Shown one piece after another: positions 22,904 through 46,709 of a DNA stretch of 60,445 bases (position 1 is its first letter; each line of letters opens with the position of its first letter). The position numbers and the translations under genes are program-made. The DNA comes from Patescibacteria group bacterium (GTDB taxonomy: Bacteria; Patescibacteriota; Microgenomatia; UBA1400; PJMF01): the NCBI GenBank assembly GCA_052035325.1, contig JBPOHR010000003.1:1-60445 (forward strand). Reading direction: 5' to 3'. The notes under the pieces are model-generated. The model made no database searches. It was given only the letters and a program-made list of their open reading frames with translations, and was not told the origin of the DNA.

Positions 22904-25723
22904 CTATGAAATCTTCAACTCTCCACCTTTTTTCAGCTTCGTATTCGTTTTTTTCTCAATTTCAGCTTGCCACTCTTCTGGCCAAGTCGGAGTTTCAATA
23001 GTAGCTTGGTCACTAGGCTTCAGACCGGCTTCGCGACGTAGTTTCTGGATAGTGCGCATGAGTTCTCGGGCTTCACCTTCTGCTCGTAAGTCATCAGTTA
23101 ATTCTGTATCAAGTACAACAGTCAGTTCACCATCACTTTTGTCCAATTCCACCGTTTTAACATTCAACTCTAACTTGATTACTTCCTCAACCGATACATT
23201 TTTCAGCACGACATTACCAGATACCGCAACCTTGCTAAGTGGTTGGCGCACTTTGATTCCACTCTCTTTACGAGCTGCGTGTCCCGCCTCCACTACCTGT
23301 CGCGCAATCACCATGTCGGCACCAAGTTTATCATTATCGAAATCAAGATATTCGTCTTTATCAGGCCACATCGTCAAGTGAATTGAAGCACTTTCACTAA
23401 CTAAAGTGTGAAACACCACTTCGCTAAAAAACGGGGCAAATGGTGCCATCAGTTGGGCTAACACAAAAAGTGCGTGACCAAAGACGTGCCCAGCTTCGCC
23501 CGTCGAATCATTCTTTATGCGTTCACGACTCAGACGCAGATACCAGGTAGAAAGATCATTCGCAAAAGCCATTAACCGTCGGCTAGCACGAACAACATCA
23601 TATGCATCCATGTAGTTCGTTACTTCTTTAACTAAGGCAGCCAGCTCATGCATCAACCACTGATCCATCACATCGGTTGGGGCAGCTGGCATTACCGTCA
23701 CATCGGCAGGTTTGCTCGCAAACTGCTCGTAAAAAGACAATACATTCCACCAAATCACAAACACATTGCGACGAATATCCGCGACCTCTTTTTCCGCAAA
23801 GTTCAAATTTTCACCCTTCATCACGGTTGAACTCATCAAGTACAAACGCAAACTATCCACACCATACTTTTCGATCAACACCATCGGATCTGGGTAATTT
23901 TTCTTAGATTTGCTCATCTTGGTGCCATCTTCTGCCAAAATCGTGCCCGTCGTCAGGACATTTTCAAATGGCTTTCGATCAAACAAAGCTGTTGACATCA
24001 CATGCATGGTATAGAACCAGGCGCGTGTCTGGGCAATGTACTCACTCACAAACTGCGCGGGTGATCGATCATGAAAGGTCTGTGCATTTTCAAATGGATA
24101 GTGTGGCACTGCAAACGGCATCGAGCCTGACTCGACCCAACAGTCAAACACCTCGGGGACTCGTGTCCCTTTGATCGTTCGCTCTTCGTTAATCCAGATT
24201 TCAATGTCGTCAATATACTCACGGTGAATATCCGTCAAATTAGCGACTCGCTCAGGCTCTACCGCCCACTCTTTTAGCTCAGATATCGAACCCACAATGC
24301 GATACTGCCCTTCAGCGCTCACCCAAATTGGCATGGGTGTACCCCAATATCTTGATCGGGAAATATTCCAATCAGGCGCATTCTCTAGACCTTTTTTGAA
24401 ACGGCCATGTTTGAGATGTTCAGGATACCAGTTAATCTGCTCGTTCAACTCCACAAGTCGCGGACGAAGTCGAGCAATATCAATAAACCAAGCGGGTAAT
24501 GGTGCGTAATACAATCTGGTGCCACACCGATAACAGGTAGCCACACTATGCGTATGTTGGTGGTGAGCATAAATCAACCCACGATCCATCAAGTGAGCAT
24601 CAATACTCTCGTTGGCTTTGAGAATAAATTGACCGGCCCATTCACCAATTTCTGGCTTTAGTTTACCTTCTTCATCGACGTGTTCAATAAGCTGGATACC
24701 TCGGTCTTTCATCACCCGATAGTCATCTTCACCATACACAGCCAACGTCACTACTCCGGTACCTTCTTCAGCGGTCACAAAAGGATCTGCAACCACGACA
24801 CCGAATTTTTCAGTTGACATTCGATCAGGATAAAAATCAAAGTGAGGTATGAACTCTAATTCTTCAAGTTCTTGACCAGTATAGGATTGCACTACTTCAT
24901 AGAATGTCTCTTTTTTTAATTCACTCAAGCGACTCTCCGCCAAAATATAGTACTCATTGCCTTGCTTGACTTTAACGTACCTCAAATCAGGATTCACAGC
25001 CAACGCAGGCGTAGCTAATTTGTTCCACGGCGTCGTCGACCAGGCCAGCAAATACGTATCAGCTTGACCTACTACTGGATACTTATATGTGGTTGAAGGT
25101 TCGCTGACTTCTTTGTAACTATTGTCCATCGCAATTTCGAAGTTAGAGAGAGGCGTCGAGCATCGTGGACAGTACAAGATCACTTTGCGACCTTCATAGA
25201 CTAGCTTTTTCTCCCACAGTTGTTTGAATCCCCACCAGACCGATTCCATGAAAGTGGTATCCATGGTTTTGTAGTTGTGCTCAAAGTCTACCCAACGACC
25301 AAGGCGACCAATGATCCGCTCCCACTCTTTATCGAGCTTCAGCACTTCTTGACGACAAGCATCGTTAAACTGATCAATTCCGAACTCCTCAATCCCTTTT
25401 TTACCACCTTTGATCTCGAGTTTTTGCTCGATCATGTTCTCGATAGGCAAACCATGACAGTCCCAACCCCAGACGCGCTCTACCCTGTAGCCCTTCATCG
25501 TCCAATAGCGAGGAATCACGTCTTTGGTGGTAGAGGCGAGTAAGTGACCGTAATGAGGTAAACCAGTAGCAAATGGTGGACCATCGTAGAACACATAGGC
25601 TTTGTCGGCTGGCCGCTCTTGAACCGACTTTTCAAAGGTCTGATCATCCTGCCAGAACTGTTGCACTTCCTCCTCAAGTTGAGGGAAAGAAGGTGGCTGA
25701 GTAAAGTTAGTTGCTTTGGGCAT
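22904..25723 (-). CDS. ileS: Isoleucine--tRNA ligase, type 2 (IleRS2)
   Basis: DGPPFATGLPHYGH, GWDCHGLPIE, WSTTPW, DWNISRSRYWGTPMPIW, QTRAWFY, KMSKS. Confidence 0.97.
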   Translation of the reverse strand: MPKATNFTQPPSFPQLEEEVQQFWQDDQTFEKSVQERPADKAYVFYDGPPFATGLPHYGHLLASTTKDVIPRYWTMKGYRVERVWGWDCHGLPIENMIEQKLEIKGGKKGIEEFGIDQFNDACRQEVLKLDKEWERIIGRLGRWVDFEHNYKTMDTTFMESVWWGFKQLWEKKLVYEGRKVILYCPRCSTPLSNFEIAMDNSYKEVSEPSTTYKYPVVGQADTYLLAWSTTPWNKLATPALAVNPDLRYVKVKQGNEYYILAESRLSELKKETFYEVVQSYTGQELEELEFIPHFDFYPDRMSTEKFGVVVADPFVTAEEGTGVVTLAVYGEDDYRVMKDRGIQLIEHVDEEGKLKPEIGEWAGQFILKANESIDAHLMDRGLIYAHHQHTHSVATCYRCGTRLYYAPLPAWFIDIARLRPRLVELNEQINWYPEHLKHGRFKKGLENAPDWNISRSRYWGTPMPIWVSAEGQYRIVGSISELKEWAVEPERVANLTDIHREYIDDIEIWINEERTIKGTRVPEVFDCWVESGSMPFAVPHYPFENAQTFHDRSPAQFVSEYIAQTRAWFYTMHVMSTALFDRKPFENVLTTGTILAEDGTKMSKSKKNYPDPMVLIEKYGVDSLRLYLMSSTVMKGENLNFAEKEVADIRRNVFVIWWNVLSFYEQFASKPADVTVMPAAPTDVMDQWLMHELAALVKEVTNYMDAYDVVRASRRLMAFANDLSTWYLRLSRERIKNDSTGEAGHVFGHALFVLAQLMAPFAPFFSEVVFHTLVSESASIHLTMWPDKDEYLDFDNDKLGADMVIARQVVEAGHAARKESGIKVRQPLSKVAVSGNVVLKNVSVEEVIKLELNVKTVELDKSDGELTVVLDTELTDDLRAEGEARELMRTIQKLRREAGLKPSDQATIETPTWPEEWQAEIEKKTNTKLKKGGELKIS

Positions 25724-25766
25724 AAAAAAACCTCCATCGCGCTATATACATAGTGCGTGAAGGTTT
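25724..25766 (-). terminator. ileS leader terminator / SD-sequestering hairpin
   Basis: AAACCUUC-ACGCACUAUGUAUAUAGCGCGAU-GGAGGUUU followed by more U's (7 in total) and then AUG; the 5' arm overlaps the antiterminator. Confidence 0.8.
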
Positions 25767-25905
25767 CTCGAGATCTCTCAAGAAAGGTACCAACCTTCTG
25801 TACTTGATTATGGCTGTATCGGGCTCCCCGGCTCGGTCTAGTGTCTATGCTTCAGCAAAGAGTTCTTCGAGCACCTCCCCTAGTGATGGCTAGGGTTATG
25901 CGGCT
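25724..25905 (-). ncRNA. T-box riboswitch leader of ileS with ultrashort Stem I (specifier AUC)
   Basis: Promoter TGG-TACACT (25912-25920); hairpin CCCUAG-CCAUCA-CUAGGG (25878-25895); T-box AGAAGGU-UGGUACC (25786-25792 bulge); antiterminator closed by CCUU; alternative hairpin followed by U7. Confidence 0.9.
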
Positions 25906-25942
25906 ATATGTAGTGTACCACGAGGCAGCTGGTAACAAAATG

Positions 25943-27484
25943 CTACTTCCCATTTGAAAATGTCAGTTCAGAGCTACTCACTATTTTTGGCGAAAGAGAA
26001 CCTAGATATCTATTCAACCAAAACTTCCTCATCAGTGCAGAAAACCACGTATCATGTTTTCGAAGTGATCTAAGATACTCTCCATGTTTTCTCCCTAATT
26101 CATCTATCTTTGTGCTCACTTCTTTTAGCTGCACAGTATGGACAACCCCAGCTTCACCAGAAAGTGCTGCACTTTCATCCACTTTTTTCAACACGTATGT
26201 TTCAACGATCCCTAAAGCCTCATCAAGTGAAAGACCTAGAGTTGGTCCCGTTAGGCCAGCAAGCACTTGAGGCAAATAGTAGTACCGGACGGCATTATTT
26301 TCTGTTGAAACTTTGCCTAGGTGCTGTACAAACTCACCATGCTTGTGTACAGCGTCGAGTAGTACTTCCATTTGTTGTTTGTTAGCCACTTTTCTGGCAA
26401 GAGCTAGACGTACCGCAGCTACTGCTACCTTTGGTTTTTTTGAATATAACTTTGTGTACTCCGCTTTCATTCCCATAGACTCCATAAAGGACTCAAGCAT
26501 CGCCAACCAGGCTTCTTCTGGTGATTTACCAGCTCTCAGGGCATCAAATGCGCTAGCAACCAACTGCCAGTTCAACCAAGTTCGCTCATTCATGACCACA
26601 CTTGATCCATCAGCTGTAGGTACAACACCGGCCATATCGACTAGATTCTCCAACAGCCACTGCGTAAATTCTTCAGAAGTCTGGAAGATTGACTCGCTTA
26701 GCAATGCCTGTAGCTGCTCGGGACCCGCTTCAAGCCCTTGTGCTAACTGGCCAACATTGGTACTGACACCGCCTTTGATAATTCGTTTAATCCGCTCTTG
26801 GACGTCTGGTGACTGTTTATTTAGCAATGGCAAGAATTGAGCACGTAGTTCAGGCGTGTCCACTAGATAAGCCAGTGCCGCATCATGATCAGTAGTCAAG
26901 TTTGTGCCATGCGACTGAGCGTTTTCATGAATAGCTTTCTCGACTATGCCCAACTTAGCAATATCATGTTGCAGAAGTAGTACTATTTCCGTAGTGAATG
27001 ACTCAACACTTGAAACAGTACTGTTGGCTCGCTCGCACATCTGTTCAAATGAAGCCCGAGTTAAACCACCTGATTTTTCAGCTGAAGTCCGCGGGACAAA
27101 AAGTCTATAGGCTTTGTCAGCCGTAGCTACTTGGTTACCCTTATGAAGCAAAAACAACACATAAATCGACTGGATTGTCTTTTTCTTTTCTGTTTGTGGA
27201 TTTTTTGGTGAATAACTGGCGGCTTCCAGCGAGCGATCAAACAGACCAAGTTCTTCTGGAAATGCACTCTGTAATTTCCGGGAGAATACATCAAAAAATT
27301 GTGTTCTTGATTCTAGCAAATCAGGATCTACCTTTTCAAATTCCTGGAACACATCATTCAGCCAAGTCACGATATCAGCAGGTTTTTCTGATGCTGCTGC
27401 TAGTCTGTCACGGACAGTTTTGGGTACATCCATCCCCCCATCAACCATTTGTCTACGAATTACATCTTCAGCAAAAGAAAACAT
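25943..27484 (-). CDS. Hypothetical 513-aa protein with HD-phosphohydrolase-like motifs
   Basis: LLLQHDIAK, TDHD, NVGQLAQ.E, LVDMAG; TATACT 7 nt before ATG. Confidence 0.7.
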   Translation of the reverse strand: MFSFAEDVIRRQMVDGGMDVPKTVRDRLAAASEKPADIVTWLNDVFQEFEKVDPDLLESRTQFFDVFSRKLQSAFPEELGLFDRSLEAASYSPKNPQTEKKKTIQSIYVLFLLHKGNQVATADKAYRLFVPRTSAEKSGGLTRASFEQMCERANSTVSSVESFTTEIVLLLQHDIAKLGIVEKAIHENAQSHGTNLTTDHDAALAYLVDTPELRAQFLPLLNKQSPDVQERIKRIIKGGVSTNVGQLAQGLEAGPEQLQALLSESIFQTSEEFTQWLLENLVDMAGVVPTADGSSVVMNERTWLNWQLVASAFDALRAGKSPEEAWLAMLESFMESMGMKAEYTKLYSKKPKVAVAAVRLALARKVANKQQMEVLLDAVHKHGEFVQHLGKVSTENNAVRYYYLPQVLAGLTGPTLGLSLDEALGIVETYVLKKVDESAALSGEAGVVHTVQLKEVSTKIDELGRKHGEYLRSLRKHDTWFSALMRKFWLNRYLGSLSPKIVSSSELTFSNGK

Positions 27485-45311: not shown

Positions 45312-46709
45312 TTAGCTTACCATGTTTGCGAGGTAGGGCTCAAGTTCGGTGATGGGCACGCGCTGCTGCTCGGCAGTGTCGCGATTTCGAACAGTCACTG
45401 CTCCATCGGTAAGCGTCTCGAAGTCAATCGTGACGCAGGCAGGTGTACCAATTTCGTCTTGATACAGATATGCCTTACCAATGTTCCCCCGATTATCCCA
45501 AGCAGTACGCATGGTGGCGGATAATTGAGTGAAGACTTCTTGTGCCTTAGCCACGAGCTCTGGCTTGTTCTTGAGCAAGGGAATCACCGCCACTCGGTAT
45601 GGGGCCAGTGCCGGATTCAACCTCAGGACAGTGCGTTGTTTGGAGTCGTCGAACCAGTAGGCATCGGTCAGGATCATCAGAAACAACCGATTGATACCAA
45701 CGGCTGGCTCGATGACGTGGGGCAAGAACTTCTCACCCGATTGTGGATCGGTGTACTCGAGGCTTTGGCCCGAGTGATCTTGATGCTGCTTGAGATCGTA
45801 GTTCGTACGATATGCGACACCCCAGAGTTCTTTCCAGCCAAAACTAAAGTTATAATCCAGATCGTAGGTATCTTTACTGTAGTGACTGCGTTCTTTGTCG
45901 GTGTGTTGACGCCAACGCAAGTTCTCTGCCTTGATACCTAGCTGTTGCGTCACAAACTCCCACATGGCATCTTTCCACTTAGCGAGCTCATCTTCCCATT
46001 TAGATTGATTAGGATTGAAAAAGTACTCAATCTCGGCCTGCTCAAACTCAATCGTCCTGAAGACAAACTGCCCCGTAGTGATTTCATTGCGGAAACTACG
46101 TCCAATGTTACCCACCCCAAACGGCAGTTGCACACGAGTGCTGTCGAGAATTTGCTTGAAGTTGGCAAAAATGCCTTGGGCCGTCTCACCGCGGAGGTAG
46201 ACCTTTGACTTCTCACCCGTGACGGTGCCAATAGCTGTTTCAAACAATAAATTAAAACTCTTGGGTGCCGTGACGGGGTTACCATCGGGGCTGAGGATGT
46301 GATGCTCTGAGATAAAAGTAGCCATCTCGTCGATCTTCATATCCTCTACTGATACACCCATTACCTCAGTGTGCTTCGCTAACCAAGCCTCAATTAGATG
46401 ATCTGCCCGATAGCGCTTGTGACTAACCGTATCCTCCACCAACGGATCGCTGAAAGAAGCCACATGGCCAGACGCCACCCAAGTCTCAGGATGTTGGAGA
46501 ATCTGGGTGTCGAGACCAACCATGTCGGTACGACGGTGAATAAAGTGAGTCCACCACAAGTTACGAATATTACGAAGCAATTCAGCACCCAAAGGACCGT
46601 AGTCGTAGGAATTGGCTAACCCGCCATAAATCTGCGAAGTAGGAAATACGAAGCCGCGGCGTTTGGCCAAAGCAACGATGTCATCTAGTTTGACAGAAGT
46701 GTCTGTCAT
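45312..46709 (-). CDS. glyQS: Glycine--tRNA ligase, homodimeric (alpha2) type
   Basis: KRRGFVFP..QIYGG, YDYGPLG, LRGETAQG, FRNEIT, IEFEQAEIE, PHVIEPAVG, RYLYQDEIGTP-like anticodon-binding domain. Confidence 0.97.
   Translation of the reverse strand: MTDTSVKLDDIVALAKRRGFVFPTSQIYGGLANSYDYGPLGAELLRNIRNLWWTHFIHRRTDMVGLDTQILQHPETWVASGHVASFSDPLVEDTVSHKRYRADHLIEAWLAKHTEVMGVSVEDMKIDEMATFISEHHILSPDGNPVTAPKSFNLLFETAIGTVTGEKSKVYLRGETAQGIFANFKQILDSTRVQLPFGVGNIGRSFRNEITTGQFVFRTIEFEQAEIEYFFNPNQSKWEDELAKWKDAMWEFVTQQLGIKAENLRWRQHTDKERSHYSKDTYDLDYNFSFGWKELWGVAYRTNYDLKQHQDHSGQSLEYTDPQSGEKFLPHVIEPAVGINRLFLMILTDAYWFDDSKQRTVLRLNPALAPYRVAVIPLLKNKPELVAKAQEVFTQLSATMRTAWDNRGNIGKAYLYQDEIGTPACVTIDFETLTDGAVTVRNRDTAEQQRVPITELEPYLANMVS

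Follow-up and report, generated by a model that had tools for sequence, protein, structure and literature searches.

The leader immediately upstream of ileS in a Patescibacteria group bacterium is, on comparative evidence, very likely a T-box riboswitch of the ultrashort-Stem-I subclass that couples expression of isoleucyl-tRNA synthetase (IleRS) to the charging of tRNA-Ile. It occupies positions 25907-25724 of the 60,445-nt stretch of contig JBPOHR010000003.1 (GenBank assembly GCA_052035325.1) that was analyzed, called here the window, and was delimited from the sequence and by comparison with related loci. All window features described below lie on the minus strand. That the leader is a T-box at all is close to certain; burial of its Shine-Dalgarno sequence in the OFF state is probable, and the chances of an added transcription-termination component are about even. 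The regulated gene, ileS (22904-25723), lies directly downstream and encodes a 939-amino-acid protein, identified from its open reading frame (ORF) and from profile matches to NCBIfam TIGR00392 ileS (783 bits; cutoff, 621) and the Pfam domains tRNA-synt_1, Anticodon_1, and DUF5915.

Comparative evidence was drawn from 80 loci related through IleRS, designated here by L numbers, about 35 of which carry (A/G)GGUGGUACC 5′ of ileS. Further features of these 35 or so leaders are a short hairpin whose loop reads ...AUCA, the motif GAAGAA...UAGA, and CGGGUAAGCCCGUAA; they come mostly from metagenome-assembled genomes whose titles name Patescibacteria or Woesebacteria or are evidently wrong. Specifiers were counted in 35 leaders, 31 of Patescibacteria type (the window included) and 4 from Actinomycetaceae. 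MAFFT alignments of whole leaders or of 34 modules were misaligned where an extra hairpin between Stems I and II or a long Stem III occurs, and an alignment of the 16 cleanly alignable leaders (A3), which includes 3 from Actinomycetaceae and excludes the window, was used instead. A covariance-model alignment of all matches (A4) misassigned Stem I in leaders with insertions, such as L019, L009, and L010; pair counts were not taken from A4, and Stem I was extracted directly.

RNAalifold recovers Stem I, the lower part of Stem II, and Stem IIA unaided from A3, with compensatory changes in 11 of 15 pairs. When the kink-turn (K-turn) stem is included, pairing extends to 92.6% of the cells, and double changes occur in 13 of 18 pairs. 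The covariation score is 0.631 versus 0.188 in shuffles, none of 500 of which attain it; these controls take no account of phylogeny. The score collapses when partner columns are slid by 1 to 3 positions. The covariance model R1, built from A3 and thus without the window, finds a single match in the 60,445 bases, at 25801-25907 with 71.6 bits and an E value of 4.8e-15 (quick calibration makes the E values rough and leaves bit scores unaffected), and all 18 modelled pairs of this match are standard. The initial annotation, made from the sequence alone, had proposed an ileS T-box that presents AUC and a following purine in the terminal loop of an ultrashort Stem I, had made the idea depend on conservation of the loop codon, and had suggested covariation tests on ileS leaders collected across Patescibacteria. 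AUC is kept in the Stem I apical loop of all 35 leaders, followed by a purine in 34 (31 with A and 3 with G) and by U in the remaining 1, and Stem I, the K-turn stem, and Stem II covary. The single R1 match, the invariant apical AUC, and this covariation together support an ultrashort ileS T-box.

The decoding module begins with a K-turn-like junction. Covariance-model alignment places its 5′ strand at 25904-25896 (C-stem GCC at 25904-25902, bulge GCAU, then AA) against the consensus aagCguUUGA, the family GA being AA in the window, and alignment together with covariation places its 3′ strand at 25877-25873 (GA at 25877-25876 and C-stem GGU at 25875-25873). The C-stem covaries across the family (ACC/GGU, AUC/GAU, AGC/GCU, and UCC/GGA). 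Enclosed by these strands is Stem I (25895-25878), in which 6 bp between CCCUAG (25895-25890) and CUAGGG (25883-25878) close the hexaloop CCAUCA (25889-25884); the specifier AUC (25887-25885) sits in this apical loop and is followed by A25884. On its own the hairpin, which folds at −9.4 kcal/mol, departs only a little from chance, with a z of −2.1 and 4 shuffles out of 200 that are as stable. Loops of 6 nt are found in 23 leaders and loops of 7 nt in 9, and all six stem pairs covary (score, 0.552 versus 0.241 in shuffles, of which 0 of 500 reach it); a slide of +1 also scores, because of the 7-nt loops. The 6-bp stem sits immediately between the K-turn strands, which leaves no space for a long Stem I or a distal elbow-binding platform. 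The possibility of a long Stem I further upstream was rejected on two grounds: the end of the upstream gene is at 25943, and the short stem is abutted by the K-turn strands.

Stem II (25872-25831) comprises a lower helix of GCUCG (25872-25868) and CGAGC (25835-25831), the S-turn strands GAAGAA (25868-25863) and CUAGAC (25841-25836), and a distal short hairpin with a UGAA loop. The lower helix is recovered by RNAalifold in the family with compensatory changes in five of five pairs, and the window aligns to both GAAGAA and UAGA, which are nearly invariant family columns. Stem IIA (CGGG/CCCG, loop GAG) and the F-box variant CCCGAUA follow at 25830-25817, with the linker CAGCC extending to 25812; the window aligns to the CGGG..CCCG(A/U)UA columns of the covariance model, and the family consensus CGGGUAAGCCCGUAAnAGC is invariant, so that Stem IIA/B is supported by conservation and not by covariation. 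By analogy with the Mycobacterium tuberculosis and Nocardia farcinica T-box structures (PMC11297988, PMC7583486), a IIB pseudoknot can form between the GC of the linker and the GC of the IIA loop, the bases behind it being invariant. All of the sequence features listed in the initial annotation (CCCUAG-CCAUCA-CUAGGG, CGGG-GAG-CCCG-AUA at 25830-25817, and UGGUACC) are present on the minus strand, and what it took for small middle hairpins is a complete Stem II, S-turn included, and a Stem IIA/B.

Beyond the decoding module, the linker AUAAUCAAGUACA (25811-25799) holds a conserved AAG at 25805-25803 and no Stem III hairpin. Linkers of 23 to 27 nt that likewise have no Stem III are shared by 18 of 34 family members; the remainder have a hairpin there, and close relatives have a clear Stem III. 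The antiterminator or antisequestrator (25798-25759), supported by folding and covariation, consists of helix A1 (GAAGG[U], 25798-25793, with CCUUC, 25763-25759; 5 to 6 bp), the T-box bulge UGGUACC (25792-25786), whose UGGU is complementary to the ACCA end of tRNA, and helix A2 (25785-25777 with 25772-25764; 8 to 9 bp; loop AGAU). On its own it folds at −13.9 kcal/mol (z, −2.1). A1 and A2 covary around UGGNACC across 32 leaders, with many pair types in A2 and the A1 variants AGAGG/CCUCU, AAGGU/(A/G)CCUU, AAAGG/CCUUU, UAAGG/CCUUA, and CGAGG/CCUCG.

The predicted OFF-state hairpin, a terminator or sequestrator (25766-25729), pairs AAACCUUC (25766-25759) with GGAGGUUU (25736-25729). It reuses the 3′ strands of A2 and A1 and is therefore mutually exclusive with the antiterminator. 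With an energy on its own of −19.6 to −21.4 kcal/mol (z, −5.9; matched by 0 of 200 shuffles), it is more stable than the antiterminator, and minimum-free-energy folding of the complete leader yields this form; the complete leader folds better than 200 of 200 shuffles (z, −3.7). The Shine-Dalgarno sequence GGAGG (25735-25731) is fully paired in this hairpin, and a tract of seven U residues (U7; 25730-25724) follows, the first two closing the hairpin and the rest adjoining the AUG at 25723; the 3′ end of the leader thus reads ACGCACUAUGUAUAUAGCGCGAU-GGAGG-UUUUUUU-AUG.

Among the 31 Patescibacteria-type leaders, 25 have a U-run of at least 5 after the homologous hairpin, 17 to 297 nt 5′ of a separate Shine-Dalgarno sequence and AUG, a transcription-terminator layout that suggests control of transcription. 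The U-run is fused to the AUG in four (the window, L018, L038, and L040). Actinomycetaceae leaders have no U-run, those of L066, L073, and L080 reading GAGGACGG...AUG. By this comparison the window hairpin reads as a sequestrator that very probably descended from a terminator, and it may still act as a terminator too. The translational type to which the initial annotation likened the leader agrees with the buried GGAGG and would be only part of the likely output, the OFF hairpin having the look of a terminator fused to the Shine-Dalgarno sequence.

With the roles of the leader parts taken from studied T-boxes (PMC7583486, PMC11297988), the following mechanism is proposed. The GAU anticodon of tRNA-Ile would pair with AUC and be clamped by the purines of Stem II, as seen in structures of actinobacterial ileS T-boxes bound to tRNA. 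An uncharged tRNA would then pair its free ACCA-3′ end with UGGU and stabilize the antiterminator, leaving GGAGG and the AUG accessible, whereas a charged tRNA could not pair with UGGU, and the OFF hairpin would form and hide the ribosome-binding site. Given the U-tract, this hairpin would probably also end transcription just 5′ of the start codon. The default state would be OFF, and support of the antiterminator by uncharged tRNA would turn the leader ON, which is the classical T-box logic.

An actinobacterial ileS T-box with an ultrashort Stem I was reportedly described by Sherwood, Grundy, and Henkin in 2015, according to later reviews. Its layout comprises a K-turn, a short stem, an AUC-A apical loop, a Stem II S-turn, and IIA/B, and the M. 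tuberculosis and N. farcinica elements have been solved in complex with tRNA, under PDB accession numbers 6UFG, 6UFH, and 6UFM (PMC7583486, PMC11297988, PMC12990946). The family described here has the same order of parts (K-turn, 3- to 8-bp stem, NN-AUC-A loop, Stem II S-turn, and IIA/B), and R1 scores Actinomycetaceae leaders at 70 to 79 bits, 3 of them being in its seed, and Actinobacteria outside the seed at 55 to 74 bits; Micrococcaceae, Microbacteriaceae, Nocardioides, and Mycolicibacter are among the groups at 55 to 79 bits overall. Judged from these sequences, the Patescibacteria ileS leader is homologous to the actinobacterial element and not convergent with it. Of the "similar or independent minimal design" offered by the initial annotation, similarity thus stands, one model fitting the Actinomycetaceae leaders as well, and independence falls.

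The window leader is like the actinobacterial ileS T-box in the gene it precedes, the apical AUC followed by A, a short Stem I that has no tRNA-elbow platform, the K-turn-like flanks, an S-turn in Stem II, the IIA/B F-box element, the UGGU bulge, and the placement of the Shine-Dalgarno sequence in the OFF hairpin. It differs in its Patescibacteria-type host, the missing Stem III (24-nt linker), a U-A rather than G-U closing pair in A2, the U7 after the hairpin, the G-to-A change in the K-turn, and a much lower GC content, and most of its Patescibacteria relatives differ further in having a true terminator apart from the Shine-Dalgarno sequence. With the canonical class I T-box (RF00230; e.g., Bacillus subtilis tyrS) it shares the tRNA-sensing logic, a K-turn-like junction, Stem II/IIA-B, F-box, and a T-box bulge in an antiterminator whose competitor is a hairpin terminator with a U-tract, but it has no long Stem I, specifier internal loop, AG bulge, distal double T-loop platform, or Stem III. 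The glyQS T-box of B. subtilis and Geobacillus kaustophilus is likewise reduced relative to the full architecture; however, glyQS drops Stem II and IIA/B and keeps a long Stem I and Stem III, and the window ileS leader does the reverse.

Several observations weigh against reading this leader as a working T-box. No T-box match was returned by Rfam RF00230 at its gathering threshold (93 bits) in the window, nor at an E value of up to 10 on positions 25600-26050 (451 nt). A Stem III with flanking purines (5′-RRRxG-Stem III-AA-3′) is absent from the window leader, in which the 24-nt linker from F-box to T-box has no self-complementarity and retains just the AAG at 25805-25803, and Stem III is called integral to, and indispensable for, binding of the tRNA 3′ end in studied T-boxes (PMC7583486). 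The 5′-strand G of the tandem G-A in the K-turn is A in the window (UAA for UGA), as it also is in L003 and L031; the IIA loop, GAG against UAAG, is one base short; the F-box reads CCCGAUA, with GAUA in place of GUAA or GUCA; and the A2 pair closing next to the bulge is U-A and not the canonical G-U known as the "steric sensor." A consensus scan of the ileS leader called neither a promoter nor a terminator. No tRNA-Ile gene was found in the window (whose tRNAs are Asp, Gly-CCC, and Thr-CGU) or in 55 related loci.

Across the family, the closing pair of A2 is G-C in 18 leaders and A-U in 7, and G-U occurs only in 3 Actinomycetaceae. The promoter and terminator scan, which was also blank on the glyS leader described below, misses hairpin-plus-U6 elements of −31 to −34 kcal/mol (RNAfold) in L016 and L024; it responds poorly to stems that are long or interrupted in this way, so its negatives are uninformative and carry little weight. 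Bacterial tRNA-Ile has a GAU anticodon and an A73 discriminator, and the tRNA-Ile of this genome would be expected to have both, the U of the T-box bulge then pairing with A73. RF00230 gave no match at its gathering score in 20 related loci either, and L004 is the sole Patescibacteria locus with any signal (21 bits); as positive controls, the Chloroflexi leaders of the orthologous ileS (L071 and L077) scored 101 to 103 bits, and Actinobacteria scored 38 to 54 bits. The initial annotation had suggested that standard T-box models could miss the 5′ end; RF00230 misses that end together with the rest of the element.

Other explanations of the leader differ chiefly in how they treat the OFF hairpin. 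The same T-box might be purely translational, with the hairpin as a Shine-Dalgarno sequestrator and U7 as a mere spacer. Complete pairing of GGAGG, a normal 7-nt spacing to the AUG, the absence of a U-run in the Actinomycetaceae leaders L066, L073, and L080, and the description of the ultrashort class as translational (PMC7583486, PMC12990946) make this possible if doubtful; yet sequestration is impossible in the 25 of 31 leaders in which the hairpin and a U-run of at least 5 stand apart from the Shine-Dalgarno sequence and AUG, and the window hairpin has that same hairpin-plus-U-tract form. Conversely, the T-box might act by transcription attenuation only, the overlap of terminator and Shine-Dalgarno sequence being a by-product of genome compaction. 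We consider this unlikely: it accords with the U7 after the window hairpin and with the free-standing terminators of the family majority, but a read-through transcript refolded into the hairpin would also bury the Shine-Dalgarno sequence, so that a translational component follows from the structure, and recurrence of the fusion in L018, L038, and L040 suggests that the arrangement is maintained.

The departures from consensus might instead mark a decaying, nonfunctional remnant, the more so as there is no Stem III, the K-turn is weakened, the F-box and T-box sequences are altered, and about 20 related Patescibacteria ileS loci without the T-box motif indicate that the element can be lost. A remnant is nonetheless very improbable, given that all helices are intact (0 nonstandard among 18 modelled pairs), as are the specifier, UGGU, and the mutually exclusive hairpins, that 18 of 34 diverged leaders have the same arrangement without Stem III, and that the A1 variant AAGGU/ACCUU is compensated on both strands. 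We give slightly less credence still to a minimal tRNA sensor that arose convergently in Patescibacteria and is not homologous to the actinobacterial class. The phyla are distant and the Rfam model fails to connect them, but a single covariance model covers both groups, which have in common the K-turn flanks UGA...GAG, the S-turn GAAGAA/AGUAGA, and an identical CGGGUAAGCCCGUNA element, and the IleRS is 39 to 40% identical to the Actinomycetaceae and Chloroflexi enzymes. A chance grouping of intergenic hairpins would explain why the Stem I hairpin and the antiterminator singly reach a z of only about −2; it is refuted by the single R1 match (E, 4.8e-15) and by the conservation and covariation that the element shows in over 30 genomes at the orthologous site, and its likelihood is negligible.

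Read as a T-box of the ultrashort-Stem-I subclass, the ileS leader has its main value as an entry to a probably undescribed family of miniaturized T-boxes. T-boxes serve as the model for how one RNA recognizes the identity and charging state of a tRNA, and if the miniature leaders are functional, T-box control at the level of transcription would be possible without a long, elbow-contacting Stem I, Stem III would be dispensable, and the smallest natural tRNA-sensing riboswitch would amount to a codon hairpin of about 18 nt plus a discriminator. Reviews place the ultrashort Stem I in translational actinobacterial ileS leaders and hold that transcriptional T-boxes generally need a long, elbow-binding Stem I (PMC7583486, PMC12990946). 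The ileS leader and its relatives would be natural counterexamples or extensions to the translational-only ultrashort class, the need for a long Stem I, and the need for Stem III. A phrase search found no description of a natural T-box without Stem III, and only a review calling Stem III required. Full-text searches of the library consulted found no paper that treats T-boxes together with Patescibacteria or the candidate phyla radiation. As far as this evidence goes, the ultrashort-class members from Patescibacteria are undescribed. The class II search of TBDB is limited to Actinobacteria (PMC7778990) and RF00230 is blind to these leaders, so T-box regulation in Patescibacteria is probably missing from annotations. 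The host phylum is huge and little studied, with tiny genomes and few known regulators, and miniature T-boxes could supply native regulatory parts for its emerging genetics. The compact sensor without Stem III would also lend itself to structural studies and engineering as a minimal scaffold.

A second T-box-like leader (46898-46742) lies in the window upstream of glyS (45312-46709; NF003211, 586 bits). Its putative Stem I (46898-46881), ACUGGU/CUGGCA/ACCAGU, has a hexaloop with GGC at 46890-46888 followed by A; its T-box sequence, CUAGGG-UGGAACC (46827-46815), contains UGGA, which fits U73 of tRNA-Gly; and a terminator with U6 (46777-46742) precedes a separate Shine-Dalgarno sequence. It has a 7-bp Stem III and no Stem II, IIA/B, or long Stem I, and scores just 24 bits with RF00230. 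GGC-presenting hairpins of at least 4 bp, with 19 different stems, occur in 21 of 50 glyS leaders that carry the T-box motif versus 9% of shuffles, and further glyS leaders show such hairpins with 3-bp stems by eye. This is possibly the most reduced T-box layout among the leaders examined.

A wider scan, using a pattern of the IIA/B consensus plus the T-box motif and then R1, found the ultrashort design in Saccharibacteria, Moranbacteria, Magasanikbacteria, Gottesmanbacteria, Paceibacteria, CPR2, and WS6. Apical specifiers other than AUC occur in leaders of valS (GUC followed by A or G; L105:3370-3475, L117:7042-7134, L143:302-507, and L158:728-860), aspS (GAC-A; L152:433-542 and L134:606-684), alaS (GCC-G; L104:5334-5446), and aroE, encoding shikimate dehydrogenase (UUC-G; L145:2411-2523). 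The ultrashort Stem I is described in the literature for ileS only. That Patescibacteria have a repertoire of miniaturized apical-loop T-boxes beyond ileS (valS, aspS, alaS, aroE, and glyS), most acting via terminators, about half of the ileS ones without Stem III and the glyS version without Stem II, is roughly an even call. A further leader (L093:2976-3092), about 220 nt 5′ of aspS, has the apical loop GAAUCG with no GAC or GAU and could present AAU (Asn) or AUC.

The ileS leader lies in a 219-nt intergenic region between ileS and the end (25943) of an upstream gene (25943-27484). This gene encodes a 513-amino-acid protein whose only Pfam match is DUF6829 (E, 1.7e-16) and to which no NCBIfam family was assigned. 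Read from the sequence, a candidate extended −10 element, TGgTACACT (25920-25912), makes a transcript start at about 25907-25904 plausible, in keeping with the +1 that the initial annotation placed about 10 nt before Stem I, and TGCTATAAT-type elements occur in related leaders at an equal distance from the K-turn strand.

The ileS leaders vary in several further respects. Roughly 20 Patescibacteria-type ileS loci (L011 to L013, L025 to L027, L032, L039, L041 to L046, and others) have no UGGNACC within 330 to 450 nt upstream, so the T-box is patchily distributed, or has been replaced, within the group. In L006:1885-1891 and L020:1902-1908 the bulge is UGGCACC rather than UGGUACC, which predicts either G73 in tRNA-Ile or tolerance of a C-A mismatch. 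L004:1760-2000 and L030:1590-1800 each have an evident T-box bulge and a terminator but no recognizable GAAGAA/UAGA Stem II or CGGG..CCCG IIA/B. An extra hairpin or spacer of about 20 to 50 nt that separates Stem I from the 5′ strand of Stem II breaks the direct junction of K-turn and Stem II in a subset of leaders (L005, L006, L008, L009, L010, L014, L015, L017, L019, L021, L028, L029, L036, L048, and L083), and because of this insertion R1 misassigns Stem I there. The stretch between terminator and start codon is long in some loci, the distance from T-box to ileS being about 165 nt in L007 and L036 and about 300 to 380 nt in L021 and L047. The taxonomic labels of the closest IleRS and GlyRS relatives clash with their Patescibacteria-like neighbours and are probably wrong: HK-STAS-PATE-16 is filed as Pseudomonadales, L001/L201 (DASPLQ010000012.1) is labelled "Vitreimonas sp.," and many others are labelled "uncultured Pseudomonadales/Gammaproteobacteria."

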